Virus record (IMG/VR): IMGVR_UViG_3300029849_000005 | Span: 19,937-83,936 of that record | Strand: one strand, 5' to 3' | DNA: 64,000 nucleotides | Source: a virus | Lineage: Duplodnaviria; Heunggongvirae; Uroviricota; Caudoviricetes | Shown here: positions 27,370-52,150 of the stretch, piece after piece | How the letters are laid out: every line of letters starts with the position of its first letter | How positions within the stretch are numbered: the stretch's first letter is position 1 | Translations under genes and position numbers: made by a program | Notes under the pieces: model-generated | Database searches by the model: none | The model's input: only the letters and a program-made list of their open reading frames with translations | Told to the model about the DNA's origin: nothing

Positions 27370-27516
27370 ATACAGGAAGCAATTCCGATTTAACGGCCGC
27401 CCTTGCCAGTATCACGTACTGGGCTTTTCACGTGGACGGTCTGTCAGCATAACTCACAGTATTACTTACATGCTTCCTTTAAAGTTTAGCCTCTTCCAGC
27501 GCAAGAGCACTTATAG

Positions 27517-27783
27517 TCACTCTTCGCCATAGTACATCAAGTATAGCACCTGCTGACGCAAACCATATCTACGTGTAACCACGTTAGCTTCCGCTCTCCT
27601 GGAAAGCGCAGCACTGATACTCCTCTTGAGTTTATCGGCATCAAATAGCAAACCAGTTACTCCTACTAATCCATTAGGCTCATCAGCGCAGATGTAATCT
27701 ACTGCTTCAAAGAGCTGGGCTTTAGTTTCAGAACTGTTCACCTTCTGCCATTTCTTTATTTCTTTCTCAAAGTCCATAATCAA
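27517..27783 (-). CDS. hypothetical protein
   Basis: 88-aa ORF. Confidence 0.4.
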   Translation of the reverse strand: MIMDFEKEIKKWQKVNSSETKAQLFEAVDYICADEPNGLVGVTGLLFDADKLKRSISAALSRRAEANVVTRRYGLRQQVLYLMYYGEE

Positions 27784-28154
27784 TTAAGTGCTTCAAGTTC
27801 TTTAGCTAATTCTTCCAGAGATTTGCCTTCGAGCTCAGCGTCTTGTTTCTTAGCCATAAGGTCAAGAATCTTCTGACGTTTAGCTTTCTTCTCACTTTCA
27901 AGTAGACGGTCTTCCTGTTCTTGCAACTTAACATCAATAATGTGTTTTGCAATATTGAATTTCAGTTCAAGTTCGGTAGTGTCTTTAGTCCGGGTTTTGA
28001 TGAAGCTTTCAGTTTTAGACTCTTGCAATTTCTTGTTAAGAGCAATTGCAATATTGTCAAGTTGAATTAAGGGTAAATCCCACAAGTCTTCAACAGAAAG
28101 AACTCCACGTTGCGTGTTAAAACGCAATTTCATTCTAGATGCTTTCTCAAACAT
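27780..28154 (-). CDS. coiled-coil protein
   Basis: 124 aa, rich in K/E/L heptads. Confidence 0.45.
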   Translation of the reverse strand: MFEKASRMKLRFNTQRGVLSVEDLWDLPLIQLDNIAIALNKKLQESKTESFIKTRTKDTTELELKFNIAKHIIDVKLQEQEDRLLESEKKAKRQKILDLMAKKQDAELEGKSLEELAKELEALN

Positions 28155-28156
28155 AA

Positions 28157-29095
28157 TTATAGCATTAAATTGTTAATACGTTTATATTCTTCAAACACTT
28201 TGTCCTCTGATTCTTCTCCCCACATACTGTGAATGAGAATACCATAAGCACAAGGCTGGTACACAATAGGGTCTACTGCCTTCTTAGTGATTGTAACCTC
28301 TGGATTGTTTAATTGACTAGGAGGGCAAGCTACAAATAGCTCATTTCTACCTATCTTAACAGCATCAAAGGAAACTATGTTAGGGTAGCTAAAAGCCTTT
28401 ACATCAGCAGGAAGGCCGGGATTCTTGTTAATTATACTAGACAGCCTGAGTGTGCCTTCTATATCAGGGCCAATAACTATGTGATTGTGTGATTCTATGT
28501 ATTTCTTCAGATTGTTCAACATAGTTTCACCGTCACTGTATCCGTAGTTAATACCTGTAACATAATAATACGCCCCATTAGCATACTCCAACCCTAAATC
28601 AGAGAACATTGGTCCTTCACCATTAAGTTTACGCTTAACTTCTAAGATTTCTCTAATATTACGGTCAGGAATCACTCCAGTGTACTGTTTTAGTAGACCT
28701 TTGACAAGTTTATACTTCTTACAAACATCATCAAATTGTTTAGAACCAACTAGAAGAGTACTCTCTCCGAATACCTCTCTTGCACGCTTTACGAAACTAA
28801 ACAAGTTCTTAGCGCGCATGGCATCCAGAGCTATCTGATTATATTCCGATATTTTAGCTTGCAATAACCTAGCATTCTTTGAGCTGCCCAGTCCAGCATC
28901 AACCAACGTGTTGTATTCTCTTACTAATGTATCTCTATTAGGAATATCAACTGATGTCTTGGAAACAGAACGTAGATATTCCTCCATACATAAAGCAAGA
29001 GCCATAGCTATGCTGGACTGAATAGTCATCACCGGCACGTCAACCACTTCTGGAGTTATAACTTCAGAATCATTGCGTTTTAGAAATCTAAACAT
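28157..29095 (-). CDS. paralogous family protein P1 (unknown function)
   Basis: Shares the C-terminal block DP(I/F)V(Y/F)...G(I/V)(L/M/V)I.S.WG.E..D..F and N-terminal GLG..KN with the 31112..31978 and 36718..37569 proteins. Confidence 0.55.
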   Translation of the reverse strand: MFRFLKRNDSEVITPEVVDVPVMTIQSSIAMALALCMEEYLRSVSKTSVDIPNRDTLVREYNTLVDAGLGSSKNARLLQAKISEYNQIALDAMRAKNLFSFVKRAREVFGESTLLVGSKQFDDVCKKYKLVKGLLKQYTGVIPDRNIREILEVKRKLNGEGPMFSDLGLEYANGAYYYVTGINYGYSDGETMLNNLKKYIESHNHIVIGPDIEGTLRLSSIINKNPGLPADVKAFSYPNIVSFDAVKIGRNELFVACPPSQLNNPEVTITKKAVDPIVYQPCAYGILIHSMWGEESEDKVFEEYKRINNLML

Positions 29096-31107
29096 CAGAA
29101 ATTGACTTTTAAAGTTCTACTAAATGTTCCGTCCACTTTAACAATAACGGAATTACGCATAGTAGATGAGAATCCTAACCCACTCAATTGATGTTCTTGG
29201 TAAGGAGTCTTCATCTTATCAGCTAGAATCTCAAATACCTTACGGTGAGGAGTTAGCTCACTGTTAAGATATTCGTTAAAGAATCCACGAACAGGCTCCG
29301 GATTCTTGCAATCATCCAACATAAAGAAGTAATGTTTATTGCCAATACCCTGCTCATCCCAATAATTGGGAGACAGCATCATCACGTTCACCTTATGGAA
29401 CTTGTTAGTATCAATATTCCATAGGCTTACTGACAAATTGCTAGTACTGGGTATTAGCTCTCTTATTTGGATGTCTTTAGATTTACTGTAAGTAATCTCG
29501 GCAACCATGACATTCTCTTTATGTTTAACGGGTTTGTCATAGACAAATTGTCGGACTTCTCCATTGTGTTCTATTTCCAATGTAAATCCTGTATCAACAG
29601 ATTCTCTACAATGAAAGTTATTAACATACACAACATACTTACCTTCAAGCATCTTGCGTTCGTTAACCCATATAATGTTCTCAACGGGTTTGCGAGTTTT
29701 GCCATATCCGGCATTTTCATCCACGTCTAGCTTACCACCACTTCTGCCAATTCTGTTGGAGTAATAAATTTCAAGATTATTAGGTTCAACGACATGCAAA
29801 TCCAAGTCATCATAGTTAGACCATGCCAACGAACATCTTAAGAAACCTTCAGTCTGACCACCAGCAGCTCTTACTTTCTCTTTAATAGAATCAGCTACCC
29901 CTCCATTATATGTCCAAGCAAAGTTGTTCGGCCATTTAAACAGATTCTTAGCATCCTTGTTAACAGGAGCTGTAAGAGTTACTAAGTTATTGGACAATCT
30001 ACTTTCCATTAACACTTCTATGTTAGTGGCAGTGGGTACCACATTAGCAATGAAATCATCAATGCTAATTTCAGTTAACTTGTCAAACTTCTTAGGATTA
30101 ACTTTAGTGTCTGCGGCCAGTTCTTCGAATATATTTCCAGCCATTACCTTCTTGGCATCACGATTAGCAAATATAACATTGTTGACTGTTATATCCTCTA
30201 AGGCAGCATGTCTACGAGGTAGAGAATCCATAAGACCTAGTTCCTGCACTTTCTTCTGTGCTTCCTCAATCATTCTTTTAGTAACAATTGACTTAGGTCT
30301 TTGATAGTTCTCTGGAGCCATGATACGTTCGTATGCAGTCACACAATCGTCCAGTTCAAGTCCTGATGATATATTTACCAACAATGTACCAATTGCCGTA
30401 TTACGAATGCGTGCACATCCTACACGATTGAAGTTTGCCCAACACCAGTTGTCTTTCTCTTCATCAGGTAATGAATCATAGTGTCTTTTATGACCCAGGA
30501 ATACACTTAAGTCATTTTTAAACTGTTCTCCTCTATATAAAGCATTCTGACCTATTAAGTCCAGAACTATTTCTATAGAATCGATAGTTAATTCCTCCAG
30601 TGCACGTTTGAACACTTCCTTAGTTGTGCGTAAAGTCCCCATTACAGCAGATACGGATTCAGTTCCTGTATACACCAATTGATTTGGCATATGATAGTAA
30701 AGATGATTCCAGGTAATTACTTTAGGACCTTGCAAACTGTCAATATAGGCATTGTTTCTATCAATTCCTAGTTCATAATCACGAGTGATAAAAACATCTA
30801 CAACTGGTTTTGATTTCACTAATGCATCGAGATTTCTAGCTACAGTAGCATAAGGTTCATCCAACTGTAGGTTCTCCCACATGGTTACTACTTTATTGTC
30901 TTTAATGGCGACAACTCTACCATAATGTCTGATATAATGTTTACAATTGTTGCAATTATGAGACTGTCTCTCTTCCTCCGGAAAGGAATTAAGATAACAA
31001 TCCCATAATGCGTCCTTGTCTACATTAGTCAGAAAGAGCATGTCTGCACCAGCGGCTAGTTGATTAAACTGCGCATGGACTGCTCTTTTAAACTTGACAA
31101 ATTCCAT
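29095..31107 (-). CDS. large hypothetical protein (670 aa)
   Basis: Long uninterrupted ORF between paralogs P2 and P1. N-terminal CNNCKHY. No recognisable catalytic motif. Confidence 0.55.
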   Translation of the reverse strand: MEFVKFKRAVHAQFNQLAAGADMLFLTNVDKDALWDCYLNSFPEEERQSHNCNNCKHYIRHYGRVVAIKDNKVVTMWENLQLDEPYATVARNLDALVKSKPVVDVFITRDYELGIDRNNAYIDSLQGPKVITWNHLYYHMPNQLVYTGTESVSAVMGTLRTTKEVFKRALEELTIDSIEIVLDLIGQNALYRGEQFKNDLSVFLGHKRHYDSLPDEEKDNWCWANFNRVGCARIRNTAIGTLLVNISSGLELDDCVTAYERIMAPENYQRPKSIVTKRMIEEAQKKVQELGLMDSLPRRHAALEDITVNNVIFANRDAKKVMAGNIFEELAADTKVNPKKFDKLTEISIDDFIANVVPTATNIEVLMESRLSNNLVTLTAPVNKDAKNLFKWPNNFAWTYNGGVADSIKEKVRAAGGQTEGFLRCSLAWSNYDDLDLHVVEPNNLEIYYSNRIGRSGGKLDVDENAGYGKTRKPVENIIWVNERKMLEGKYVVYVNNFHCRESVDTGFTLEIEHNGEVRQFVYDKPVKHKENVMVAEITYSKSKDIQIRELIPSTSNLSVSLWNIDTNKFHKVNVMMLSPNYWDEQGIGNKHYFFMLDDCKNPEPVRGFFNEYLNSELTPHRKVFEILADKMKTPYQEHQLSGLGFSSTMRNSVIVKVDGTFSRTLKVNF

Positions 31108-31111
31108 AATC

Positions 31112-31978
31112 TTATAAAGGTTTAATATTGTCGAATATATTGTCTTCGGCTTCTACTCCCCATTTAGAGTGAATCATTACCCCTATTGGAGTTACTTGAA
31201 ACACAAATGGGTCATTATTGATAGGAATAATCTTCCTTTCAGGAACTGTAAACTGCATCGTTTCATTCATTTCTTCAATAGGAGCGGCAATGAATAAGTC
31301 AGCACTGCTACATTCTTTTGAATCAGCAATGTTCACGTCATGTGCCTTGGCTTTATTAAGGATATGAAAGAATGGATATGCATTCATTCTAGCCTTATTT
31401 CTACTCAAATACATAAGTCCAATATGGGAAGGTTCCTGCCTAATGAAGTACCTTACAACCGGATAGGACATTCTATCAATAGGCATAGGGTGAGTAGCAA
31501 CTTGCATACCAGTAACATACCGTAAAGGTGAACCGTTTCCGCTATAGTTAACATACTCATTTGCTTCAAGTGCTTGAGCAGTGGCCATTACCTTAGAGAT
31601 TTCATCAATGTTCTCGTCAGGTACAGAACCTTTATAAGCTGATAGTCTTCCAACAACTAATCCATACTTAACATTCAGATTAATGAAATCCTCCTCCTTA
31701 AGTATCAATGAGCCAGGGAAATGTCTTTGCAAAAAGCTATAACATTTTAAGACTTTAAGGTCCTCTTCCGAAGTGATAGCATCACCTACTTCTTTAGAAT
31801 TAGTAAATCCTAAAGCTTTCAGTTTGACAGCCTTATCAACTAGTTGATGATTCGGATTCAGACCCTTAATAGTCTTCATGTACTCTACAGCCATTAGAGT
31901 ATAAGCTAATTGCACTTCTTGGGCTGTGAATCTCTTTGTGCCTACAGACGTATCTGTAGAAGGACTAAAATTGTTCAT
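31112..31978 (-). CDS. paralogous family protein P2 (unknown function)
   Basis: Same conserved blocks as P1 and P3 (…DPFVFQVTPIGVMIHSKWGVEAEDNIF). Confidence 0.55.
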   Translation of the reverse strand: MNNFSPSTDTSVGTKRFTAQEVQLAYTLMAVEYMKTIKGLNPNHQLVDKAVKLKALGFTNSKEVGDAITSEEDLKVLKCYSFLQRHFPGSLILKEEDFINLNVKYGLVVGRLSAYKGSVPDENIDEISKVMATAQALEANEYVNYSGNGSPLRYVTGMQVATHPMPIDRMSYPVVRYFIRQEPSHIGLMYLSRNKARMNAYPFFHILNKAKAHDVNIADSKECSSADLFIAAPIEEMNETMQFTVPERKIIPINNDPFVFQVTPIGVMIHSKWGVEAEDNIFDNIKPL

Positions 31979-32098
31979 AATTACTTTTGTTTAACTGAAC
32001 CTGGTCTGGTAGTAGCTCTCTTAAATGAATCAGATTGCTTATCCCACCAAGCCTGTCGGTCTTTAAGACGTTGTACTTTCTTCTTGTATTTCATAGGT

Positions 32099-32572
32099 TT
32101 ATCCTATTTCGTTACTAGCATTATAAGCAAGCTTGTCGGCTTCCTTATTATGTTCATCACTTGCGTGACCTTTACACCACTCAACAGACACTACTTTATG
32201 CCTGTTCACAGCCTTATCAAGACGTTCCCACAAATCAGTATTGGCTTTCCTCTTCCACCCTTTAGTAAGAGTTCCTACAATATACATAGAATCTGTTACT
32301 ATTGTAATTTCAGAAGGTTCCTTTATGGATTCCAGGGCAACTATGGCAGCCATTTGCTCCATTCGCTGATTGGTGCTGTTCTTATACATCTTACTGTATT
32401 GGAATATCTTCTTGTCATCCTCTAAAATGACAAAGCCTATTCCTCCTTGATTTCTCGCAGGAGAATAGGCACCATCACAGTATATTCTGTACTTATGCGT
32501 CGGCATTAGGATTCTCAACAAAATCCTCATCATCCTCATCTTCTTCGGTTTCGGATATGACATCTTCATCAA
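32099..32572 (-). CDS. rnhA: ribonuclease H
   Basis: RNase HI motifs: YCDGA...GGIG, MAAIVALE, IVTDSMY, WCKGHASDEHNKEADKLA. The true start may be an internal Met. Confidence 0.8.
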   Translation of the reverse strand: MMKMSYPKPKKMRMMRILLRILMPTHKYRIYCDGAYSPARNQGGIGFVILEDDKKIFQYSKMYKNSTNQRMEQMAAIVALESIKEPSEITIVTDSMYIVGTLTKGWKRKANTDLWERLDKAVNRHKVVSVEWCKGHASDEHNKEADKLAYNASNEIG

Positions 32573-33023
32573 TAAGATGCTTAACCCACATACCTAAGAT
32601 AAAGATGACATAGAATTTGTCTTCCTCCTGTTTGTAGTTAACCTTGTCAGAGACTTCATTAACTACATCTAACATTGTGAACTCCTCTTTAGCCATAGCA
32701 TCATCAGCTATAGCAGACATTTCTTCTACATAAGGTCTAGCCTTCTGCATCGCTTCGTCAAAACTCTTTACTAAGGCTATGCCTTCATCACCTCTAATTT
32801 GCATAGCAACAGATAGAGGTCGTTGCAATTCATCTCTAAAGAAGCCCAAATAGAAAGCTTTCTCTACATCTCCGTTTACGAAGTCATTGAAAGATTTAGC
32901 TTTCATTACTTCCTCCACTTTGAAATCAATTTCTGATACGTCTCTGATTTTGTCCATAATGTTATGATAGCAACCCACCAATCTTCTCGGCCATGACTGT
33001 TGCTTTGTTAGAAACTGCTTCAA
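32493..33023 (-). CDS. hypothetical protein with acidic C-terminus
   Basis: 176-aa ORF. Confidence 0.45.
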   Translation of the reverse strand: MKQFLTKQQSWPRRLVGCYHNIMDKIRDVSEIDFKVEEVMKAKSFNDFVNGDVEKAFYLGFFRDELQRPLSVAMQIRGDEGIALVKSFDEAMQKARPYVEEMSAIADDAMAKEEFTMLDVVNEVSDKVNYKQEEDKFYVIFILGMWVKHLIDEDVISETEEDEDDEDFVENPNADA

Positions 33024-33213
33024 GGTTTGCAGCTTCAGTTTGTAATTCGATAATCTCTTGTTCTCTAACCTCTTTCTCTGCTTGAGCTCTAGATGCTACC
33101 TCTTTAAGATTGGTAACAGCTTTCTCAAATACATCAATAATCTTAGCTGATTCCTCGGCTAGTGAGGTACTTGTTACTTTAGCCGGTTCGGCTGATTGTT
33201 TCTTTCCAAACAT
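32962..33213 (-). CDS. small coiled-coil protein
   Basis: 83-aa ORF. Confidence 0.35.
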   Translation of the reverse strand: MFGKKQSAEPAKVTSTSLAEESAKIIDVFEKAVTNLKEVASRAQAEKEVREQEIIELQTEAANLEAVSNKATVMAEKIGGLLS

Positions 33214-33244
33214 CTTATAGGATTAGAATTACAGGGTTCAGGGT

Positions 33245-33327
33245 GAGCGGCTGTCGGGAATCGAACCCAATCTATCACTTGTGCGCATACTAAAATTAGT
33301 GATGTGCCCTCCTTTACACTACAACCG
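33245..33327 (-). tRNA. tRNA-like gene with aberrant anticodon arm (identity undetermined; possibly a pseudo-tRNA)
   Basis: Canonical acceptor (GCGGTTG/CAGCCGC), D arm (GTGT..GCAC) and T arm (TTGGG-TTCGATT-CCCGA). The anticodon stem TCACT/AGTGA encloses an 18-nt loop instead of 7. Confidence 0.35.
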
Positions 33328-33595
33328 CATGGAGCAGTGGTTAGAATACTAATAGTCAAACACTAATAGTCATTCCTAAAGAGGTGTTCTGCAACCACCC
33401 CACAGTCAGCGCTAAACTGCACGTCTTATTACATACGCTCAACTCTGCTTTAGTTGTCATCGCTGGACTTTATTTAACCCAGATTCCAGCCTGGTCTATA
33501 CTCGTTTCCTTTTAAGCTTACCACACTTGGAACATACTAGTAAGTATCTGTTACAATCAGTATAGCTAGTTTTTGCTATTATAGTCCATTCATGC

Positions 33596-36388: not shown

Positions 36389-36463
36389 GTAGCGAGAAGG
36401 TGACTCGAACACCCAACCTTGCGATTATGAGTCACACGCTCTAGCCAGTTGAGCTATCTCGCC
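36389..36463 (-). tRNA. tRNA with CAT anticodon (Met/fMet/Ile2)
   Basis: D arm TAGCTCAACTGGCTAGAGC. Anticodon loop CTCATAA. T arm GGGTG-TTCGAGT-CACCT. G1:U72. Confidence 0.65.
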
Positions 36464-36717
36464 ATTAATAAGAACATAAAGCTCATCGTGTCTACATCGT
36501 TACCAATGCAACCTTAATACCTCCCGTTTGCTTCACTGCCGGCTAGTCTGGCTTTGTCTCCTTATGTTCTTATATATGAATAATCCGCCTGGCAGGGCTG
36601 CGAGCTGCCTTACCAATTATTGACGTCAGCTAATCTATGGAATAGCACGTCTGCTAAACTGAAATAGCCCTATAGTCATTTCTACACCTGCTCACATTTA
36701 AGTGGTGGATTACATGT

Positions 36718-40521: not shown

Positions 40522-40523
40522 GT

Positions 40524-40543
40524 AAAAGGAGTCCGAAGACTCC
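40524..40543 (-). terminator. GGAGTC-TTCG-GACTCC hairpin plus U-run between the PurA-like gene and tRNA-Gln
   Basis: Perfect 6-bp stem with a UUCG tetraloop, followed by TTTT on the minus strand. Overlaps the TAG stop by 1 nt. Confidence 0.5.
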
Positions 40544-41610
40544 TAAACTAACTTATCGAATATCATGGGTTGTATTGACATCCATAAATTCGCTAGCATT
40601 TCTTGCTCTGCGTCAGATGCTTCATCCCAATGTGATACGTACAATTTCTCCGTTCGTTCATTCCTATAAGGAACTTTAAATGAACGGTTAATGCGTACAC
40701 TGTGTGCGAATAGGTCTTTGTCGAAATCAATAGCCCTAAGCGTCTTCTGGAAATCGTTGAACTTATTATTAGGGTCATCGACATCCCTAACAGACATTCC
40801 AGAAGGAAATGGGCCGTTACCATGCCTTGTTATATAAGGACGAGTTACATAACAAGTTTGGATTTCTTTACGTATGCCTGCTTTCCGCAACAGCTCGTAA
40901 GCGTTTTGTGAAGTTGTATTAGACGGAGTGCAATAAGGCATTATGCCGAATCTTTGGTCAAGCAATATTCCCTGTGAACCTTCAAACACTAGGTTGTCAT
41001 AGTTTAACAAGCAATCTTCATTAACCGTACCTGTATGTAAGAAATAAGCATGTGCTAACCTACACCAGTTGTCTAGGTCTATCGAGGGATATTTACTAGA
41101 CATGTTGTAATAGTTATCCACTATGGCATTTAATTTCTCACGTAGTATGTAAGGATTCATACAATCTACAACTGTTAAGCTGTATCCTGCCTTAACTCGG
41201 TCCAAACAAGCTTTAAACCCTGTACCTACAGTACCATGTCGTAAGTTCTCTTCGTTATTAACTTGGGAATAGACATCGAAGGGAATTACAACTTGGCAGT
41301 GAGGGTGATACTGAACAATGGGACGAACTCCCATTTTAGCTAAGTCTGCACCCTCTAACATAGAGGTAATTGGGTCTACAGTACAGTATTCGGACCAATA
41401 CGTCGGCACTCCAAGTAAGGTTCCGCTGCCAAAGTTACTAAAGGTGTGCATCATGTCTCCATGCTTTACAGTATGTCCTACTTGATGTCCACCACTAAAC
41501 CTGACTACTAATACAGACTCTCGCTTACCTATGTACTTGTTACATAAGTTGTGAACTGTCTGTCCCTTACCTTCGTCTCCAAAGAATGTTCCTAATACAA
41601 TACTAATCAT
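40543..41610 (-). CDS. adenylosuccinate synthetase (PurA) family protein, short form lacking the GTP-base-recognition region (PurZ-like candidate)
   Basis: PurA motifs: VLGTFFGDEGKGQ (P-loop), RFSGGHQVGHTV, GTVGTGFKA, FEGSQGILLD...YCTPSNTT, TRHGNGPFP. Only 355 aa. No TKLD/guanine-binding segment. Confidence 0.8.
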   Translation of the reverse strand: MISIVLGTFFGDEGKGQTVHNLCNKYIGKRESVLVVRFSGGHQVGHTVKHGDMMHTFSNFGSGTLLGVPTYWSEYCTVDPITSMLEGADLAKMGVRPIVQYHPHCQVVIPFDVYSQVNNEENLRHGTVGTGFKACLDRVKAGYSLTVVDCMNPYILREKLNAIVDNYYNMSSKYPSIDLDNWCRLAHAYFLHTGTVNEDCLLNYDNLVFEGSQGILLDQRFGIMPYCTPSNTTSQNAYELLRKAGIRKEIQTCYVTRPYITRHGNGPFPSGMSVRDVDDPNNKFNDFQKTLRAIDFDKDLFAHSVRINRSFKVPYRNERTEKLYVSHWDEASDAEQEMLANLWMSIQPMIFDKLV

Positions 41611-42921: not shown

Positions 42922-43008
42922 TTACACTTACATTTAACATGTTAAATTCAATAAGCATCTCTGTGTGGTAATTTATAATCTAACTGTAATCATCTAGGAT
43001 TACAATCG

Positions 43009-43091
43009 AGCCGACTGTCAGATTCGAACTGACGTGGAGTTTCCTCTCGTGATTACAAGTCACGTGCAATCAACCACTATGCGAAGTCGGC
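43009..43091 (-). tRNA. type-II-like tRNA with anticodon TGT (Thr anticodon on a long-variable-arm scaffold; identity uncertain)
   Basis: Acceptor GCCGACT/AGTCGGC. 3-bp D stem. Anticodon stem CGTGA/TCACG with loop CTTGTAA. 14-nt variable arm GGA-AAC-TCC. T arm GTCAG-TTCGAAT-CTGAC. Confidence 0.5.
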
Positions 43092-43147
43092 ATAAACAGG
43101 AGACGATGTTACCAAGTGTGCTGACATCTCCTTCGTAAATCAAAGAA

Positions 43148-43219: not shown

Positions 43220-43526
43220 CCATGAAGCTTGCTTAACCTACCCTCTAAACCTATGCTTGGACTTGCAGTCAGTTATTCAGATATTGTCCCTTCCCGCTAG
43301 CTGAGTCATTCTCTTACTGTAATCATGTGTCCAACTCACAATTACTATTCAGATGTGCCAAATGGGACATGGCAATTCATAGAAAGTGGGTGCTAGCCGT
43401 TTCTATCCCACCATTGCGTACTACAGTGCTAGCTACCGTCTAAGCTCCTATCCCTTACGTCGCCTTAGAGTGTACATGATTATTATTGCCTAACCAGTTA
43501 CCTGATTGGAAGGATTATGTACGAGG

Positions 43527-45173: not shown

Positions 45174-45225
45174 AATTCTAATAATTAGGTTAATAATGAT
45201 TTTCGCAAACTCTTATTAGCCAGCG

Positions 45226-45313
45226 CGGAGAGTGCTGGATTCGAACCAGCGGAACCCTTTTGAGGTTCGGTCCCTTAGCAGGGGACTGGTTTAAGCCACT
45301 CACCCAACTCTCC
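45226..45313 (-). tRNA. tRNA-Ser (anticodon GCT), type II
   Basis: Acceptor GGAGAGT/ACTCTCC. Anticodon stem GTCCC/GGGAC with loop CTGCTAA. Long variable arm. T arm GCTGG-TTCGAAT-CCAGC. Confidence 0.75.
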
Positions 45314-45400
45314 AATCCACAGAAGACTTATTTATGCTATATCAATCGCTTATGATTACCTTAGTGCTGTAAGTCTTCTTAGAAATTCACTGTAAAAGGA

Positions 45401-47362
45401 TTACTTTACAGGAGGAAAATTATCACCTTTAGCTGGTGATTCTTCCGGCTTCTTGCCAGTGATTATTTGCTTAAGCGAATCTGCAATAGGCAAATTACGG
45501 GCAATCTCCAAGCTAGGAGCAAGATTCTTAGCCATATTAGCCATGAACTGCCCAGCAGTATTGGAGTCACCATACACAGTAACATTACCAAGCTGGATAT
45601 GTTCAAACACCTTAGCGTTGGCTTCAGCAACTTCTTTCCACCTGTCGGTCATTGCATATTGAACGATTGCTTCAGGATGCATACCTGATTTAATCATATG
45701 TTCAACTGCAAGAGCCGGAGCCATTTCCATTGCCTGTTTCTGTTCAGCTTCTGCCATTAAAGATGCTTTCTTACCTTCAGCTTCGGCAAGAAGTTTCTTC
45801 TTAGTACCTTCAGCTTCTGCTTCCAGTTGCATCTTAGTAGCATTTGCTTTAGCTTCTGCTGCTTTCAAGATTTTAGCTGCTTCCGCTTCTGCTTCAAGAA
45901 TGGCTACACTCTTAACAGCTTCTGCTTCAATCTTAGCTTTCTCTTTGGCCTTCTCGGCAGGTATAATCACTTCGGCTTTAAGCTTAGCTTCTTCAGCTTT
46001 AGCTTTAGCTTCATTAACTTCTACCTGACGTTCCTGCTCTGTTTTAGCAACTGCCATTTGAGCTTCAACTTTGGAAGTACCAGCTACTCTTTCAGCTTCA
46101 GCTTTAGCTTTCTCTGCTTCTCCCTTAGCTTTGGAAACTTCAATAGTAGCTTTCTGTTCAGCTACTCCTGCTGCTTTCTCTGCTTCAGCTGCCTTTTGAC
46201 GGGCTTCTGATTCATACTGTGCAGTTTTAGCTTCTTTCTCCTGCTGTGCTTTAACAGTTTCAGCTTCTTGGTTTTGTGCTGCTACTGCCATACGAACTTC
46301 CTTCTCTGCTTCTGCTTCTGCCTTAGCGGCTTCAGCTTTGGCAGTAAATTCTGCTTCTTTAGCAGTTGCATAAGCTTGCTGCTCTGCAATCTTGGCAGCT
46401 CTCAATGCTTCTTGCTCGGCAACTTTGGAAGCTTCTTCAGTTTGGGCTGTAGCCACACCAATTTCACGTTCCTTTCTTTGCTCTGCAACAGCAATTTGTT
46501 GCTCCTTATGCTGCTCGGCCAATTGAGTTTCTTTCTCTTTAGTGGTCTTAGCAATAGCAACTTCTTTCTCCCTGTTAGTTTCAGCCACTATAGTTTCTTG
46601 CTCCTTAGTAGCTGCTGCAATTGCAATCTCCTTCTCTCTCGTAGTTTGAGCTATCTGGATTGCTCCTTTCTTCTCTTCTTCTGCGATATCAGCTTGTGAT
46701 TGCGCTCTTGCTTTAGTCTCTTCTTTCTTACCAAGATTATCAATATATTGAGCAGCATCTTGAATGTCACTGATATTGATATTCATCAGATAAAGACCAA
46801 GTTTGTTCAATTCTGTATTGATATTGTCTCTAGCTTGAGCTAGGAACTTGTCTCTGTCAGAGTTAAGCTCTTCAATAGTCATCGAAGCAATAACAAGCCT
46901 CATCTGACCATAAACAATATCTGAAATCAAACTTTCTTTAACGTCATCATCAGCACCTAGTAAGCGATTAGCAGCATTCTGCATAATCAGCGGTTCTTGG
47001 CTAATAGCAACAGTTACAGTGGTAGGGATAGTTACACGAATATTTTGAGCTGACAAAGCATTCTTCAATACAAGATTCAATTGAATCGGTTGCATTGACA
47101 TTACTTCATAACCCTGTATAATCGGCCATACAAAAGCTGCACCACCATGATAAACCTTGGCAGTTTTAATTTCAACTTCTCTGTCAACCAGATTACCTTT
47201 AGCGTCGCGTTCGCTAACTTTCTCTTTGTGAGAGCCTGTTTTACCATAAACTACCAACAATTCGTCAGATTTACATTTACGGTAGCGGGATAGAATCCCA
47301 ATGATAGTGATGATTGCAACTAGTACAACTACACCAACGATAATTAATGATGTCATTTCCAT
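45401..47362 (-). CDS. flotillin-like SPFH/band-7 protein
   Basis: N-terminal TM, SPFH-domain region, long Ala/Glu-rich coiled-coil (EA repeats) and a flotillin-type C-terminal segment. 653 aa. Confidence 0.8.
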   Translation of the reverse strand: MEMTSLIIVGVVVLVAIITIIGILSRYRKCKSDELLVVYGKTGSHKEKVSERDAKGNLVDREVEIKTAKVYHGGAAFVWPIIQGYEVMSMQPIQLNLVLKNALSAQNIRVTIPTTVTVAISQEPLIMQNAANRLLGADDDVKESLISDIVYGQMRLVIASMTIEELNSDRDKFLAQARDNINTELNKLGLYLMNINISDIQDAAQYIDNLGKKEETKARAQSQADIAEEEKKGAIQIAQTTREKEIAIAAATKEQETIVAETNREKEVAIAKTTKEKETQLAEQHKEQQIAVAEQRKEREIGVATAQTEEASKVAEQEALRAAKIAEQQAYATAKEAEFTAKAEAAKAEAEAEKEVRMAVAAQNQEAETVKAQQEKEAKTAQYESEARQKAAEAEKAAGVAEQKATIEVSKAKGEAEKAKAEAERVAGTSKVEAQMAVAKTEQERQVEVNEAKAKAEEAKLKAEVIIPAEKAKEKAKIEAEAVKSVAILEAEAEAAKILKAAEAKANATKMQLEAEAEGTKKKLLAEAEGKKASLMAEAEQKQAMEMAPALAVEHMIKSGMHPEAIVQYAMTDRWKEVAEANAKVFEHIQLGNVTVYGDSNTAGQFMANMAKNLAPSLEIARNLPIADSLKQIITGKKPEESPAKGDNFPPVK

Positions 47363-47375
47363 CTTGAAATTGGTA

Positions 47376-47897
47376 TTAATCTATGTATAATTTATTGTCT
47401 TCGTATTTACGAATCGTTACTGGCTCATTGACAGGATATATCTTCTTATTAAGAGATACAACTTCTACTTCTCTCAATGCTCCACTTATGTTCACGGATG
47501 CCAAATGGCGCCCTTCACCTAAATGTACATAGATAGTAGCAGTTCTGCCAACTAAGTTAGTCTTCGGTTCGTCTTTAGGAAGGTTCTGCAATTTCATACA
47601 GAACTTATATAAATGATACAGCATAAATACAAATACAAGACCTATAAAGAATCCTATTAACCAATCAATCCAGGTTACTTCATAACCTAATAATTGCTTA
47701 ATAGATGTCCATCCTCCGAATCCCATGAAGAAATGGATAAATCCTTTAAAGGATACAACATCACTGACATCAAAGTCAGCATCACCATCAAAGTCTACGT
47801 CGACATCGAACTCCCCAGCAACCCATGATATTATGAATTGTAGGATAAATATACCATAGGCGATGCCTCCTAAGATATAATACAAGTTATTGTCCAT
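47376..47897 (-). CDS. NfeD-like membrane protein (partner of SPFH proteins)
   Basis: Two or three N-terminal TM helices and a C-terminal soluble beta-rich segment (VGRTATIYVHLGEGRHLASVNISGALREVEVV). Sits immediately upstream of the flotillin-like gene, as in bacterial nfeD-floT operons. Confidence 0.6.
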   Translation of the reverse strand: MDNNLYYILGGIAYGIFILQFIISWVAGEFDVDVDFDGDADFDVSDVVSFKGFIHFFMGFGGWTSIKQLLGYEVTWIDWLIGFFIGLVFVFMLYHLYKFCMKLQNLPKDEPKTNLVGRTATIYVHLGEGRHLASVNISGALREVEVVSLNKKIYPVNEPVTIRKYEDNKLYID

Positions 47898-47926
47898 CTT
47901 ACTAATAATTATTTAATCTATTAAAG

Positions 47927-47998
47927 TGGGGCGAGGAGGAATCGAACCTCCAACGCCAGGCTCTTCAGACCTGCGCTCTACCATTGAGCTACCGCCCC
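47927..47998 (-). tRNA. tRNA-Phe (anticodon GAA)
   Basis: Acceptor GGGGCGG/TCGCCCC. D arm GCTC-AATGGTA-GAGC. Anticodon loop CTGAAGA. T arm GGAGG-TTCGATT-CCTCC. Confidence 0.75.
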
Positions 47999-48297
47999 AT
48001 ACTGCCTACACGTACGTCTTCACTGGATTTTATGCTTTATTACGCCAGTTGCTTTGGACAGTCTAAATCCTTCGGTGCTGTACAGCCATACATATATTAG
48101 TGAGGCCTCCACTTTAATTAAGCTGCCATCGCACCTACTCCCATTACTTCGTCACGCAACGTACCCTACATTCCACTTTAGGATTTTCACCTAACCACAT
48201 CCTCGGCATTCCGTTTCAAGATAAAATATAACTCTGCTGAATAAGTCAAACCAAACAGGAAGATTTATGATACGTTTATACCTAAACAGCAGAATTG

Positions 48298-48371
48298 GGT
48301 GACATACGAGACTTGAACTCGTAACCCTTAGAACCACAACCTAATGCTCTGCCAATTGAGCTAATGCCACC
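48298..48371 (-). tRNA. tRNA-His (anticodon GTG)
   Basis: G-1 plus C73 arrangement. Anticodon stem TTAGG/TCTAA with loop TTGTGGT. T arm ACGAG-TTCAAGT-CTCGT. Confidence 0.75.
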
Positions 48372-48379
48372 ATATTGAG

Positions 48380-48958
48380 TTATTGCAACTCTAATCCTTC
48401 TTTTAGTGCCCTAGTATATGCCATTCTAGCAAAGAATAGTTCAGCCACAGCCATAACTACTGGCTCTGCTAACTCTTCGGCTTCTTCGGCTCTTTCTTCT
48501 TTGGGCTTAGATTCTACATATTCTAGTAATTCCAACACAGCTCTATTAGCTTCGACCAGGTGACTATAAGCAATGCGAACTTGTTTATAATTCTTATATC
48601 TTTCTCGATATGGTCTTATTGCATTCCATGAATATGAAGCAGCTACTATTATTGATATGGCACATAGTACCATAAATCCGAAGGGTTCTCCTTTAGACCA
48701 TGCTGAATAGATTTGACACAATACAGCACCCAAACATAGATTCTGTCCTATAAAGAGGGACAATAAGAACCAATAAGCTGAAAAGGCTTTCTTTGCTTCA
48801 TCAAGTAATGATGCTGACTCCTTTAGCTTCTCTTGTTCAGCTTTTAATGAGTCAATTGACACTTCCATAGCTTCTCCTTCGTCTGAATCTTTAAGGCGTT
48901 CATATTCCTCTTCACTAATCTTGGTTATTTTCAAATCTTCTAATTCTTCTCGATTCAT
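48380..48958 (-). CDS. membrane protein with coiled-coil N-terminus
   Basis: 192 aa, two central TM helices. Adjacent to the NfeD/flotillin pair. Confidence 0.45.
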   Translation of the reverse strand: MNREELEDLKITKISEEEYERLKDSDEGEAMEVSIDSLKAEQEKLKESASLLDEAKKAFSAYWFLLSLFIGQNLCLGAVLCQIYSAWSKGEPFGFMVLCAISIIVAASYSWNAIRPYRERYKNYKQVRIAYSHLVEANRAVLELLEYVESKPKEERAEEAEELAEPVVMAVAELFFARMAYTRALKEGLELQ

Positions 48959-48986
48959 TACCTTTCAATTTAAGTTCAACAATCTG

Positions 48987-49061
48987 TGGACCTGATGAGA
49001 CTCGAACTCACAACCCTCTGCGTGCAAGGCAGATGCTCTAGCCAATCTGAGCTACAGGCCC
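48987..49061 (-). tRNA. tRNA-Ala (anticodon TGC)
   Basis: G3:U70 wobble in the acceptor (GGGCCTG/CAGGTCC). Anticodon stem TCTGC/GCAGA with loop CTTGCAC. T arm GTGAG-TTCGAGT-CTCAT. Confidence 0.8.
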
Positions 49062-49248
49062 ATATTTAGCCACACTATCGTAGGGCTATCAGCTCCCAAC
49101 GTCCGACTGATTACGGAAGATTACCTACCGGTCTGATAATCTATGAAATGCACAATTACTTAGTCATACCCCAACTGTTCTTGTCAGTCTCCGACTCCAA
49201 CCCATAGCATGTTGTAGAACTCTACATGCATACCCTCCTCATTGTGCA

Positions 49249-49560
49249 CTATTTTAAACCTATCATTTCAGCAATTTCTTCAAATGAATAATTCAGGAAT
49301 AGTCTATCCATATCTGCATCAGATTTAACCCATTTAGGTCTAGGATATATAAGAGTAGGAGAATGTCCTCTCTCATGTAATCCATACACTACTTCCTTCT
49401 TACCTTTAATAAGACGAAGGTCAATATGCTCTGACATAGAAGAATAAAATCCTATATTAGAATCTTCTACATATGTAGAACCCTTCTTAGACATTACCTT
49501 GCGATAAGGTTTATACCCTTTACTAATTAAATACTCTACGAACCCAATCATGTTAACCAC
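49249..49560 (-). CDS. hypothetical protein
   Basis: 103-aa ORF. Confidence 0.4.
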   Translation of the reverse strand: MVNMIGFVEYLISKGYKPYRKVMSKKGSTYVEDSNIGFYSSMSEHIDLRLIKGKKEVVYGLHERGHSPTLIYPRPKWVKSDADMDRLFLNYSFEEIAEMIGLK

Positions 49561-49585
49561 TATTAGTACTCCAAGTAGGATTCAA

Positions 49586-49658
<73 letters not shown>

Positions 49659-49709
49659 AACTACATGACACAGTAAAAGTGCTGATGCCTTCTTATATTA
49701 CCCATTCAG

Positions 49710-50060
49710 TTATTCTAGATTAAGTAATTCTCTTGTCTCTTTCTTAAACTGTCTCCTATTATAGCGTTCTCCTTTACATATAGGACAACTACAAGGAGTA
49801 CTGGTTGTTTTATAGGCAAACGTATATTTAGAATTATATAATTCTGTCCAATGTCTACCTCTTGCCGTTTTATCTGGATTATACCAGTAGGCAGCGTGGA
49901 GTTTAATCCTAGTAATATACTTCTGGTCTTTCTTTAGGTTCCTCCACCTTTTGTTTCTTTGGATTAGTGAATCCTTCAGTTTCTCCGTTCTTAGTTCTTC
50001 CATCGTCTCTACCATTAGTGTTAATAATGTCTTGAGACGGGTTGTAGCCAGTTCCAACAA
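49710..50060 (-). CDS. hypothetical protein with C-terminal zinc-finger-like CxCPxC
   Basis: 116 aa. TPCSCPICKG. Confidence 0.4.
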   Translation of the reverse strand: MLELATTRLKTLLTLMVETMEELRTEKLKDSLIQRNKRWRNLKKDQKYITRIKLHAAYWYNPDKTARGRHWTELYNSKYTFAYKTTSTPCSCPICKGERYNRRQFKKETRELLNLE

Positions 50061-50109
50061 ACTTCTTCATATCCAATCCTGTTAAATTAATTCCTTTCAT
50101 ACGATAATT

Positions 50110-50403
50110 TTACAATCTGTTAAATACTGCATGTTCCTTTAACCACTCTTGATAGAGCTTATCATCATAGTTCCCTGAATACTCCCAATGAAATCTACTA
50201 CATTCTATAGTCTTTAGTAAGAACTTCATCACAGACCTTGTATTAGCCTTCTTTGATATAGATGAAATGTAAAACTTCTCTTTATCAAAATCATAGTATC
50301 CTCGTAATACCACTCGGCGAGAATTTTGTCTATTTAAGTAAATTCTTGCCAACAACTTGGAGTTATTGTCTACATATCGAGTAGGTATGAATTTATAAGC
50401 CAT
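50110..50403 (-). CDS. hypothetical protein
   Basis: 97-aa ORF. Confidence 0.4.
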   Translation of the reverse strand: MAYKFIPTRYVDNNSKLLARIYLNRQNSRRVVLRGYYDFDKEKFYISSISKKANTRSVMKFLLKTIECSRFHWEYSGNYDDKLYQEWLKEHAVFNRL

Positions 50404-50716
50404 CTGATTCAGCTAGCAATAAAGTAATACCAACACAATAGGCATTATTAACTGCATTCAGCCTCTTCTTAAGTTCCTTCTTAGCCTTTCTGGGCAACTT
50501 AGGATACTCTGCATATAAATCCTGTTCAGCGGCTCTGCTTGCTTCACTTAATTGCTCAAGTAAAGCATTAACATCTTCGTTAGTTTTGTAATCCTTAAGA
50601 AGGACTCTAACTAATGTGGGACGTTTTACCATTTCTCGCATTCCAGATTCGTACACTCTACAAATCTGATTTCTACTTAACGTAGACACTCTCCTTAATT
50701 TCACTTTAAACTTCAT
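50393..50716 (-). CDS. hypothetical protein
   Basis: 107-aa ORF. Confidence 0.4.
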   Translation of the reverse strand: MKFKVKLRRVSTLSRNQICRVYESGMREMVKRPTLVRVLLKDYKTNEDVNALLEQLSEASRAAEQDLYAEYPKLPRKAKKELKKRLNAVNNAYCVGITLLLAESDGL

Positions 50717-50735
50717 AATACATTCAAATTAGTTG

Positions 50736-50821
50736 AGGAAGCAGAGGGATTCGAACCCCCGGACCCCGAAGGGTCTCTGGTTTTCAAGACCAGTGCAATC
50801 GACCAACTCTGCCATACTTCC
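50736..50821 (-). tRNA. tRNA-Ser (anticodon TGA), type II
   Basis: Anticodon stem CTGGT/ACCAG with loop CTTGAAA. Long variable arm. T arm GGGGG-TTCGAAT-CCCTC. Confidence 0.75.
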
Positions 50822-50831
50822 AATTAATAAG

Positions 50832-50904
50832 CACGCCCTGCACGACTCGAACATGCAACCCATGGTTTTGGAGACCATTGTTCTACCGATTGAACTAAGG
50901 ACGC
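50832..50904 (-). tRNA. tRNA-Trp (anticodon CCA)
   Basis: Full 73-nt layout fits. Anticodon stem ATGGT/ACCAT with loop CTCCAAA. T arm GCATG-TTCGAGT-CGTGC. 10 nt downstream of tRNA-Ser. Confidence 0.7.
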
Positions 50905-51018
50905 ATCAATTTTAGATTGTGGAATCTTTAAAGATGTAATACAATACTACTAGCACTATAGCTCCCACAATGTAAGCACCAAAACTATGCATAATCTTAT
51001 AATTTAATGTTAATAATG

Positions 51019-51092
51019 CGGTGAGTGCAGGGCTCGAACCTGCGACCTGAAAGTTAACAGCTTTCTGCTACTACCAACTGAGCTAACTCACC
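51019..51092 (-). tRNA. tRNA-Asn (anticodon GTT)
   Basis: Acceptor GGTGAGT/ACTCACC. Anticodon stem GAAAG/CTTTC with loop CTGTTAA. T arm GCAGG-TTCGAGC-CCTGC. Confidence 0.75.
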
Positions 51093-51336
51093 ATAATGTT
51101 TAATTGACCTATCCCGATTGCATCGGAGTTAATCCCTATGGTAAGGAACTACTCCTGTTGGTGTCCAAGCATAGCTATTTGCAGCTATTCTAAAATACCA
51201 ACGAACTGCTTTCTTAATTAACTTAAATAGTCTCATAATACATCAGTTTTAGTCAATAAATAAGTAATCTAAATAAACCACTCTATCTTCACAGACTGAG
51301 TGGTCAAACTCGTTCTTTGACATCATGTACAATCTT

Positions 51337-51410
51337 AGTACATATGTGACTCCGCTGCGATTCGAACGCAGGACCCCGATATTAAAAGTATCGTGCTCTA
51401 ACCAGCTGAG
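51337..51410 (-). tRNA. tRNA-Lys (anticodon TTT)
   Basis: Anticodon stem CGATA/TATCG with loop CTTTTAA. T arm CTGCG-TTCGAAT-CGCAG. Confidence 0.75.
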
Positions 51411-51503
51411 CTACGGAATCATCCGCGGAAGGCGCGTTATCAAAAACATGTAAACTGTACAATGATTAGTGCTGTACGCCTTCTTATGTTTCACTAAATC
51501 GAG

Positions 51504-51575
51504 AGTGGGCTGACGGAATCGAACCGTCCTAACTGGTTTTGCGGACCAGCCCCTAAACCTCTCGGGCAAGCCCAC
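51504..51575 (-). tRNA. tRNA-Cys (anticodon GCA)
   Basis: Acceptor GTGGGCT/AGCCCAC. Anticodon stem CTGGT/ACCAG with loop CCGCAAA (C33, atypical). T arm GACGG-TTCGATT-CCGTC. Confidence 0.6.
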
Positions 51576-51800
51576 GTATCAATACGACTTATGGGCTTAA
51601 CTATGAAACAGGTTAATCAAATCATAAATTAAAAGTTGTTGAGTTGGTTGTTGAGTTGATTTGATAATTGTTTAGTGAAACTATATATTATTGTGTTAAT
51701 TATGGTTCTTATTAAAACTACTCTATTCTCACGAACGGAGTAGTTGTTCACATTTATTATTATGGGACTATCAGCATCCTCTCTTGGATGCTACAGGGGG

Positions 51801-51873
51801 TCGGGATGACTGGATTCAAACCAGCGACCTCGTGGTCCCAAACCACGCATTCTATCTACTGAACTACATCCCG
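51801..51873 (-). tRNA. tRNA-Pro (anticodon TGG)
   Basis: Acceptor CGGGATG/CATCCCG. Anticodon stem CGTGG/CCACG with loop TTTGGGA. T arm GCTGG-TTTGAAT-CCAGT. Confidence 0.75.
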
Positions 51874-51975
51874 GACTACAGAAGTCTCTTAGTTTAATTA
51901 AAATCATAAAATATGAAACACTTTCTTTCGTGCCGTAAGACTTCTTATTCAAAGCTATTGAAAATTGTTGTATTG

Positions 51976-52049
51976 TGGGTGTGCCTGGAATTGAACCAGG
52001 GACCTCATCCTTATCAGAGATGTGCTCTAACCAACTGAGCTACACACCC
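51976..52049 (-). tRNA. tRNA-Ile (anticodon GAT)
   Basis: Acceptor GGGTGTG/CACACCC. Anticodon loop CTGATAA. T arm CCTGG-TTCAATT-CCAGG. Confidence 0.75.
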
Positions 52050-52150
52050 ATCATCAGAAGACAATAGATTCATTTACTTATGCCAACATACAGGAAATTG
52101 CTGTGTGTCTTCTTAACATTCTGAAAATGCAAATGTACAATGATTGTAGT

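Follow-up and report, generated by a model that had tools for sequence, protein, structure and literature searches.

We analysed a 64,000-nucleotide (nt) stretch of a Caudoviricetes virus (IMG/VR record IMGVR_UViG_3300029849_000005, positions 19,937 to 83,936; hereafter the window, with coordinates counted from its first letter), in which six tRNAs are each preceded by a copy of a hairpin module. In this module, a helix joins the two ends of the RNA and an ACAGCA-type box directly follows the 5′ strand. The module belongs to a modular family of phage small RNAs that is absent from Rfam and from the literature searched. Comparison of orthologous and more distant copies indicates that the helix is a real, selected structure, that the short module and a long form resembling YrlA RNA are two forms of one family, and that this family is not a tRNA-leader device as such. 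We tentatively favour the reading, held at slightly less than even confidence, that the module is a stand-alone stable small RNA "handle", which would be released by an RNase P cut and bound by a putative partner.

Six copies in the window and their conserved pairing

The window is AT-rich (GC 36–40%), ORFan proteins make up the majority of its products, and every gene and all 28–29 tRNAs lie on the minus strand. No close relative of this phage was found among INPHARED phages; IMG/VR contains many near-identical and sister contigs, here called lineage A (identical to the window), lineage B and lineage C, whose flotillin-like proteins are 69% (B) and 75% (C) identical to that of the window. Reading the 160 nt upstream of every window tRNA, we found six tRNAs (Ile-GAU, Pro-UGG, Lys-UUU, Arg-UCU, Ser-GCU and Thr-UGU) that each lie 5–6 nt 3′ of one module copy (Table 1). 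For all of these except Thr-UGU, the transcript reads UAAGAAG, 3–4 variable nt, (U)ACAGCA(C/A), a loop of 19–50 nt, the 3 or 4 nt of the return strand, CUUCUG, 5–6 nt and the tRNA.

A first-pass annotation had assigned one shared layout to eight tRNAs. Six proved to be of the same kind; the leaders of Met-CAU(36389) and Arg-ACG lack the box, are not matched by the covariance model described below and are separate elements, so that we count six copies rather than eight. The complementary central cores quoted in that annotation were correct, and its spacer of 2–6 nt after CUUCUG became 5–6 nt after CUG. Its conserved (U)ACAGCAC(U) box does stand immediately after the 5′ strand but varies between copies, appearing as UACAGCAC (Ser, Lys), UCAGCAC (Arg, Thr), CACAGCAA (Ile) and UACGGCAC (Pro). 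Variants in the window thus include ACAGCAC, UCAGCAC and ACGGCAC, mostly ending in C and not A. The Thr-UGU stem is aberrant in the window and canonical in lineages B (GAAGACU/AGUCUUC) and C (GAAGGC/GCCUUC), and the Lys helix contains an A.C mismatch that is an A-U pair in sister strains. Two copies start just after open reading frames (ORFs): the Arg-UCU module begins 14 nt past the stop of the upstream ORF, and the Ser module 18 nt past the stop of a 653-aa Band7/flotillin-like gene.

Table 1. Positions of the module copies and of two separate tRNA leaders in the window (CM, covariance model R1; RNA written 5′ to 3′)
Feature	Position	Strand	Helix	Box	Spacer	tRNA	Score and remarks
Ile module	52052..52116	-	AAGAAGACA/UGUCUUCU+G	CACAGCAA	AUGAU	Ile(GAU) 51975-52049	CM 42.2 bits; weak RF01414 match, 17.1 bits
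Pro module	51876..51948	-	AAGAAGUCU/AGACUUCU+G	UACGGCAC (UACAGCAC in most sister strains)	UAGUC	Pro(UGG) 51799-51873	CM 35.6 bits
Lys module	51423..51487	-	(A)AGAAGGCG/CGCCUUC(C)+G	UACAGCAC	CGGAU	Lys(UUU) 51346-51420	CM 30.2 bits
Arg-UCU module	49642..49696	-	AAGAAGGCA/UGCCUUCU+G	UCAGCAC	AUGAU	Arg(UCU) 49566-49639	CM 40.0 bits
Ser module	45317..45382	-	AAGAAGACUU(A)/(U)AAGUCUUCU+G	(U)ACAGCAC (UACAGCAC)	UGGAUU	Ser(GCU) 45225-45313	CM 48.6 bits
Thr module (short)	43094..43135	-	AGGAGAUG/CGUCUCCU+G	UCAGCAC	UUUAU	type-II UGU tRNA 43008-43091	CM 26.3 bits; 19-nt loop
tRNA-Met(CAU) leader	36468..36573	-	AUAAGAACAUAAGG/GCUUUAUGUUCUUAU (14-bp closing helix)		4 nt	Met(CAU) 36389-36463	separate multi-branch RNA of ~105 nt; z = -3.25
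tRNA-Arg(ACG) leader	27374..27478	-	AGGAAGCA/UGCUUCCU+G		UAU	Arg(ACG) 27297-27369	multi-branch, 105 nt; z = -3.48

TAAGAAG occurs at 35 minus-strand sites, and the reverse complement of the GAAGNNN lies within 140 nt of only five of them, compared with ~0.26 expected (35 × 120 / 4^7); all five pairs end 5–6 nt ahead of a tRNA. By itself, ACAGCAC was not enriched in the window (7 sites vs 6.1 expected), and the signal therefore lies in the combination of features. The seed of our covariance model, R1, comprised 51 diverse copies from phages, and its single 8-bp helix was set by hand. Searched over the 64-kb window with filters off, R1 gave exactly six matches (26.3–48.6 bits, E ≤ 4e-4), all abutting tRNAs, and the next score was 15.3 bits. 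Because lineage-A copies are inside the seed, the six matches arise partly by construction, and the informative part is that nothing else matched. In 400 kb of other phage loci, R1 had zero matches. In predicted folds of the six window copies, module and tRNA fold independently, and the box is unpaired in minimum-free-energy structures.

The earlier claim that the helix is a selected RNA structure was borne out by orthologous leaders in sister lineages, which we picked solely by the tRNA that they precede. Their pairing is kept through double changes: GGCA/UGCC, GACAU/AUGUC and GCCA/UGGC for Arg-UCU; GACA/UGUC, GACG/CGUC and GACC/GGUC for Ile; GGCG/CGCC, GACG/CGUC (or a G.U pair) and GGCAU/AUGCC for Lys; GUCU/AGAC and GCCU/AGGC for Pro, where UAAGAAG...CUUCUG also changes to UAGGAAG...CUUCCG; GACUU/AAGUC and GACAU/AUGUC for Ser; and AGGAGAUG/CGUCUCCU to GAAGACU/AGUCUUC for Thr. 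Furthermore, we scanned the collection with the pattern TAAGAAGNCN{1,4}CAGCAN{18,48}CTTCTG, which does not require complementarity at two free stem positions. Perfect complementarity at these positions was found in 37 of the 49 unique tRNA-adjacent matches, compared with 1/16 expected, and not in most coding-sequence matches.

In the seed alignment, 97% of cells are paired (42–48% in slid registers), double-sided changes number 83 against 21 ± 3 in shuffles, and six of the eight pairs show double changes; as the seed was chosen with a helix filter, these pairing statistics are supportive only. The 150 best-scoring R1 matches comprise 88 unique sequences, and in the 83 of these that we selected for AG/CUG ends, helix position 1 is always A-U and position 2 always G-C, while positions 3–7 pair without exception and show up to four pair types. 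Over 99 unique copies, the box reads C(.72) U(.53) U/A A(.81) CAGCA (1.0 each) A(.76).

A wider family with tandem arrays and tRNA-like inserts

Beyond the window, R1 yielded 186 matches in 100 sources, most of which had been fetched through motif-derived patterns. They represent at least 177 distinct module copies in tRNA-rich gut phages, in short and long forms. The short module measures ~45–75 nt (median 59 nt over the 99 unique copies). Its end-joining helix of 8–10 bp opens with A-G and closes with C-U-G, and a box (C)(U)UACAGCA(A/C) stands directly 3′ of the 5′ strand. In its most general definition, the module consists of A-G, a 7–10 bp stem of any sequence, (U)ACAGCAA(AU), a variable loop, the return stem and C-U-G.

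The first-pass annotation had proposed a search of other phage genomes for the tRNA-leader layout. Of the 88 unique sequences, 52 adjoin a tRNA called by ARAGORN (Pro, Ile, Arg-UCU, Lys, Cys, Ser-GCU, Val, Thr, Ala or Lys-CUU); the others are in arrays or ahead of aberrant or mini tRNAs. Tandem arrays free of tRNAs were found in L199 (6–7 units), L165 (9), L210 (5), L151 (4), L474 (6) and L432 (8), with a constant gap of 4 nt between units, usually GAUA. The stems within arrays are mutually unrelated (AGAGUAGU, AGGUUAGA, AGGACGG, AGGGGGCAA and others), and GAAG/CUUC is therefore a habit of the window's lineage, not a requirement. In L199 (3795–4197) and L210 (2018–2352), the flanks and the first array unit are common, and all later units differ in stem and loop, which indicates that array content turns over quickly. 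Given these arrays and the tRNA-like domains described below, a device specific to tRNA leaders, as first proposed, no longer describes the module.

An array pattern searched against 185,579 bacterial species genomes gave 101 matches, almost all of them chance, and R1 supported only four loci. One of the four is a 163-kb contig of an uncultured Bacteroides metagenome-assembled genome; together with Bacteroidota-type −7 boxes noted by eye at related loci, it hints at Bacteroidota hosts.

Several contigs of this collection carry further elements. On array-bearing contigs (L151 1620–1705; L148 2047–2112; L165 363–650), we noted a hatchet ribozyme (68.6 bits), a twister-P1-like match just below gathering (59.5 bits) and a group I intron (92 bits). 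At L146 12084–12400, a module stands ahead of the 5′ part of tRNA-Ser(GCU), and an ORF with HNH-like Cys motifs (MKVCSRCKQEKDE...) comes next, possibly an intron or an endonuclease insertion in the tRNA. HNH-like ORFs adjoin several tRNAs in sister strains (also in L116, L070 and L128, near Asn/Ser-UGA).

The long units measure 81–160 nt. Their loop holds a tRNA-like domain in circularly permuted order, with a T arm first, then an acceptor-like stem and last a D arm. In some units a loop closes the acceptor-like stem; in others this stem has the full 7 bp and is followed by CCA and a 10–18 nt linker. Among the 177 unique units, the T-loop motif was present in 43 of the 49 longer than 80 nt and in none of the 128 short ones. 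An encoded CCA together with a perfect 7-bp acceptor was found in L185 5350–5509, L177 1971–2128 and L220 5213–5360; the ordinary tRNAs of the window lack CCA.

No Rfam family reached threshold on any unit, but the inner parts of long units gave sub-threshold matches to YrlA (RF02553) and permuted tmRNA, the best YrlA score being 38.3 bits against a gathering threshold of 69. YrlA consists of a terminal stem formed from the RNA ends and a permuted tRNA mimic (PMC4201824; bioRxiv 10.1101/312249), and RNase P cleaves that of M. smegmatis (Chen et al. 2014, PMC4201824). As in the phage module, the stem built from the two ends of YrlA carries a conserved handle, and as in the long form, it encloses a permuted tRNA-like module with a T arm, an acceptor-like stem and a D arm. 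This architecture is found in the long units of other phages, the six window copies being short and without a tRNA-like module. M. smegmatis YrlA has a 7-bp acceptor, as do some long phage units, and by analogy the permuted tRNAs of L185, L177 and L220 could be processed to two-piece tRNA-like RNAs. In the literature searched, we found no description of the phage family and no paper in which these phages are connected with the box, with Class I RNAs or with permuted tRNA-like RNAs.

Other tRNA leaders and neighbouring features

The two leaders that differ from the module are themselves structured. The Met-CAU leader contains a covarying hairpin, with double changes at seven internal and terminal pairs across four lineage variants, and the invariant blocks AAGGAGACAA, ACGGGAG, GUAAGG and CACGAUGAGC; it has no ACAGCA box and no R1 or Rfam match. 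The Arg-ACG leader likewise has neither box nor R1 or Rfam match, but it has AG...CUG ends like those of the module. In lineage C it has shrunk to a plain 8-bp hairpin (GGAAGUGU/ACACUUCC), and a different hairpin is present in lineage B. In both leaders the closing helix lies 4–5 nt from the tRNA.

More generally, positions −12 to −7 were paired and −5 to −1 unpaired ahead of 14 of the 29 window tRNAs, compared with 15% of 300 controls (Mann-Whitney p = 4e-4). As predicted by folding, this phage has the general habit of ending a hairpin ~6 nt ahead of a tRNA, unrelated hairpins included. Across all leaders, Rfam searches at gathering and at E ≤ 10 returned only tRNAs and one weak Class I match.

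Ahead of tRNA-Gln, a terminator-like hairpin, AGGAGUCUUCGGACUCCUUUU, stands 5 nt upstream (40522–40545, minus strand), right after a PurZ-like gene. The leaders of tRNA-Phe (47999–48110), tRNA-Ala (49062–49150) and tRNA-Asp (43222–43330), all on the minus strand, are strongly conserved across lineages A–C and may, on this conservation, be further structured leader RNAs; that of tRNA-Phe contains UGUACAGCAC and has no closing helix that fits R1. In near-identical strains (L003, L047, L028, L034 and L021, compared with window 51346–51420 and 51799–51873), the leader is constant and the tRNA bodies behind it are swapped: Lys GAUUCCGUAGCUCAG... or GAUUCCGGAGCAUGUAUGG..., and Pro CGGGAUGUAGUUCAG, CGAGAUGUUCGGGAG or AUGGGUGUAAUUCAG. 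This pattern suggests cassette-like replacement or rapid diversification.

The tRNA set has further peculiarities. Rfam detected an extra tRNA (38.5 bits) at 33246–33328 on the minus strand that ARAGORN had missed, and a "+ strand tRNA-Arg(tcg)" at 45210–45286 is the antisense of tRNA-Ser(GCU) and probably an artefact. A tRNA with anticodon CUA, of the amber-suppressor type ("Pyl" according to ARAGORN), lies at 52230–52302 on the minus strand, followed by a degenerate tRNA-like stretch (52156–52223, minus strand, 20.8 bits) where sister strains have tRNA-Met. TAG is the stop of 10 of the 67 window ORFs of at least 100 aa, so that stop-codon recoding in part of the genome is possible.

The PurZ-like gene (40543–41610, minus strand) encodes a 355-aa homologue of adenylosuccinate synthetase (Pfam E = 9e-35). 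Phage PurZ proteins are typically of this size and type, and the genome might, judging from this gene, contain 2-aminoadenine. Finally, a full-length RAGATH-34 RNA lies at 56569–56676 on the minus strand (121.5 bits; gathering 60.7); its sequence is unrelated to the hairpin module. The name of the RAGATH-34 class refers to its association with the neighbourhoods of twister and hammerhead ribozymes.

Likeness to known RNAs and rival explanations

The module occurs in tRNA-free arrays and around a tRNA-like domain as in YrlA, and its helix and box are therefore most likely the binding handle of a small stable RNA. In our proposal, the module would be transcribed together with the tRNA, 5–6 nt ahead of it, and an RNase P cut at tRNA +1 would free it. 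RNase P needs only a few single-stranded leader nt, so that the hairpin would sit as close to the tRNA as cleavage permits. The exonucleases PNPase, RNase II and RNase R need approximately 7 nt or more to engage; a tail of 5–6 nt is at or below this length, and the upstream product should therefore be stable. With its closed helix and a 3′ tail too short for 3′ exonuclease loading, this product would be either the free module or an upstream mRNA ending in it. The helix and box would then serve as a handle for the partner, and the loop or the tRNA-like insert as the variable effector part. The constant spacer between CUG and the tRNA is in indirect agreement with RNase P coupling, as are the independent folding of module and tRNA, the pairing pattern ahead of 14 of the 29 window tRNAs and the RNase P cleavage of M. 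smegmatis YrlA. The RNase P recognition suggested by the first-pass annotation would be plausible only as such a cut, which would set the 3′ end of the module, and not as a tRNA-specific processing signal.

Several points weigh against this proposal. RNase P release and the stability and accumulation of the hairpin are steps that we infer. No candidate partner was recognised: among 50 window ORFs searched with Pfam, there was no RRM, TROVE/Ro or RNA ligase domain and no RNase besides RNase H, the only RNA-related matches being RNase H and a DEAD helicase. The handle differs from that of YrlA, with AAG-stem-UACAGCAA...CUG in the phages and the Rsr site GNCGAAN0-1G in YrlA. Sampling is biased, as the copies were mostly fetched by motif-derived patterns and the seed was chosen by its helix. 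Non-Watson-Crick pairs (four G.U and two A.C) are too few to assign the RNA strand, and we therefore argue for RNA-level function from the co-orientation of the 52 matches with their tRNAs, the fixed distance and the embedded tRNA-like folds. Lastly, the unrelated hairpins found at the same pre-tRNA position elsewhere also fit a purely cis-acting role.

Such a cis role is the alternative to which we give most weight, although we consider it rather unlikely. Here the hairpin would keep the leader off the tRNA, offer RNase P a minimal single-stranded leader and cap the upstream RNA, as in tRNA-punctuated transcripts such as MALAT1-mascRNA, and the shared sequence would be a legacy of duplication. 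The 14 window tRNAs with a hairpin in this position, unrelated ones at Gln, Gly, His, Met and Arg-ACG included, accord with it, as do the Arg-ACG leader, which has a hairpin in each lineage but of changed sequence, the constant spacer, the independent folding of module and tRNA, and the two units directly after ORF stops. However, a cis role does not account for a box and AG/CUG ends that stay invariant while stems and loops turn over between paralogues and lineages, or for modules in tRNA-free arrays and wrapped around tRNA-like domains. In MALAT1 and MEN-beta with mascRNA, an RNase P cut both matures the tRNA and makes a protected 3′ end, and the T4 tRNA cluster encodes extra small stable RNAs (species 1 and 2) of unassigned role. 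Like the former, the module is a structured element immediately ahead of a tRNA, and like the latter, it would be an extra small RNA encoded in a phage tRNA cluster; it has no triple helix and no sequence relation to them.

The long units raise the idea of a processing signal for permuted or split tRNA-like RNAs, in which an endonuclease and ligase would recognise the AG...CUG helix as an extended "anticodon stem", by a logic like that of bulge-helix-bulge motifs, and the short units would be empty forms or remnants. The units in L185, L177 and L220, with a permuted tRNA, a 7-bp acceptor and encoded CCA, are compatible with this, and algal and archaeal permuted pre-tRNAs close their ends with such a helix (discussed in bioRxiv 10.1101/312249). 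We regard it as improbable all the same: the units show no bulge-helix-bulge geometry and no identifiable reconstituted anticodon stem-loop, no bacterial splicing endonuclease is known, most long units have short, loop-closed acceptors like YrlA, and 128 of the 177 units have no tRNA part. A new small self-cleaving ribozyme that excises itself from tRNA and array transcripts appears very improbable. The genomic company would suit it (RAGATH-34 in the window, and hatchet, sub-threshold twister-P1 and group I intron on array contigs), and two copies end in CUGAUGA; against this stand a conserved part of only ~10 nt and one helix, the rest of the loop being free in sequence and length, the variation at CUGAUGA (CUGUGGA, CUGCGGA, CUGUAGU and others) and the failure of the leaders to match any ribozyme family (hammerhead, twister, twister-sister, pistol, hatchet, HDV-like/theta or hairpin) even at E ≤ 10. 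A hammerhead based on CUGAUGA was rejected, as the motif occurs in only two of six copies and has no GAAA/UH partner.

A DNA-level element, namely a promoter, terminator, single-strand hairpin origin or recombination site, is to our mind highly improbable as well. Bacteroidota-type −7 boxes do occur before Pro (TAGCUUUG) and Ile (UACAUUUG), the L199 and L210 arrays lie ~30 nt after TATCTTTG, a U run comes after the final unit in some arrays, and the few G.U and A.C pairs leave the strand unassigned. But the −7 box is missing ahead of four of the six window copies, and a scan for sigma-70 promoters and terminators gave chance-level results with none at a unit, which does not support the promoter or terminator module proposed earlier. 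In the six window copies, loops of ~19–50 nt and tails with no U tract (AUGAU, UGGAUU, UAGUC, CGGAU and UUUAU) rule out an intrinsic terminator, in which a GC-rich hairpin with a loop of 3–8 nt precedes a U tract. All 52 unique tRNA-abutting matches lie on the tRNA strand, directly 5′ and at a fixed distance (opposite-strand adjacency was not scored), and the tRNA-like domains inside the long units fold at the RNA level and share the orientation of their unit.

Other candidates were tried and rejected. RbpB, an RRM protein of Bacteroides, was considered as the partner; its published ligands are FopS small RNAs, and the ACAGCAA motif is not reported for it. Antisense guiding by the loops was dropped because blastn-short against the window gave only chance-level matches. 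An ACAG/CUGU pseudoknot does not fit, as the helix already takes up the CU of CUG and the nt after CUG varies, and a UGAU loop motif of box C/D type is inconsistent between copies. The arrays are not repeat arrays of the CRISPR or ToxI type, as the stems and loops within an array are all different and nothing but the AG/CUG ends and the box is common to its units.

The closest likeness of the short module is to the Class I RNAs of Dictyostelium. RF01414 was the only Rfam family to recur on the units, with full-length scores of 34.1, 28.9, 28.7, 28.2, 26.1 and so on down to 17.1 bits, all of them, from the best (L199) to the window Ile unit (17.1 bits), below the gathering threshold of 41.5 bits. 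It recurs because the Class I consensus GaUcuC-CUUACAGCAAU...GagAuC-UG aligns with GAAGU-CAUACAGCAAAU...CGACUUC-UG. Class I RNAs are 42–65 nt long and have a 6-bp end-joining stem with compensatory changes, in which an invariant 5′ G pairs with the C of a 3′ CUGU; an unpaired 11-nt motif stands beside the 5′ strand, and the rest is variable (PMC7919456).

The phage module is likewise ~60 nt long (median 59 nt), with a G...CUG-closed stem, an CUUACAGCAA box and compensatory changes in the stem that joins its ends. The Class I motif CCUUACAGCAA compares with the phage majority C-U-U/A-A-CAGCA-A; both are single-stranded and directly adjoin the 5′ strand, the remainder of the loop being variable. 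Set against the features that define Class I RNAs, the phage copies have a short stem joining the ends, here an 8-bp helix with compensatory changes, an unpaired conserved motif adjoining the 5′ strand (99 unique copies), and the G-C pair at helix position 2 with CUG in 83 of the 88 unique matches (the 83 selected for AG/CUG ends). However, there is no DUSE promoter ~60 nt upstream, and the copies are not individually transcribed dictyostelid genes but stand in phage arrays or a tRNA context. The phage helix also exceeds that of Class I RNAs in length, an additional A-U pair lying outside the G-C, and the window box mostly ends in C where the Class I motif ends in A.

Phage modules and Class I RNAs might be the same kind of RNA, either by descent, through transfer between phage or bacterial prey and amoeba, or by convergence on one partner, with the AG/CUG stem and the UACAGCAA box as a portable protein-binding handle that phages, in the manner of Y RNAs, would join to free loops or to tRNA-like modules. 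We consider this doubtful, and homology and convergence are indistinguishable here.

Class I RNAs have been held to be unique to Dictyostelia (Kjellin et al. 2021, PMC7919456), and their function has been in question since 2004. The phage modules are the first Class I look-alikes outside Dictyostelia; if the two are indeed one kind of RNA, Class I RNAs would extend beyond that group, and a phage-Bacteroides system would allow their function to be tested. Should the handle bind a factor of the host or the phage, such as one that acts in tRNA metabolism or in the evasion of defences, the arrays would act as its sponges or scaffolds. The family gives the Y RNA-like architecture a second, different handle and shows that the tRNA clusters of these phages code for more than tRNAs.

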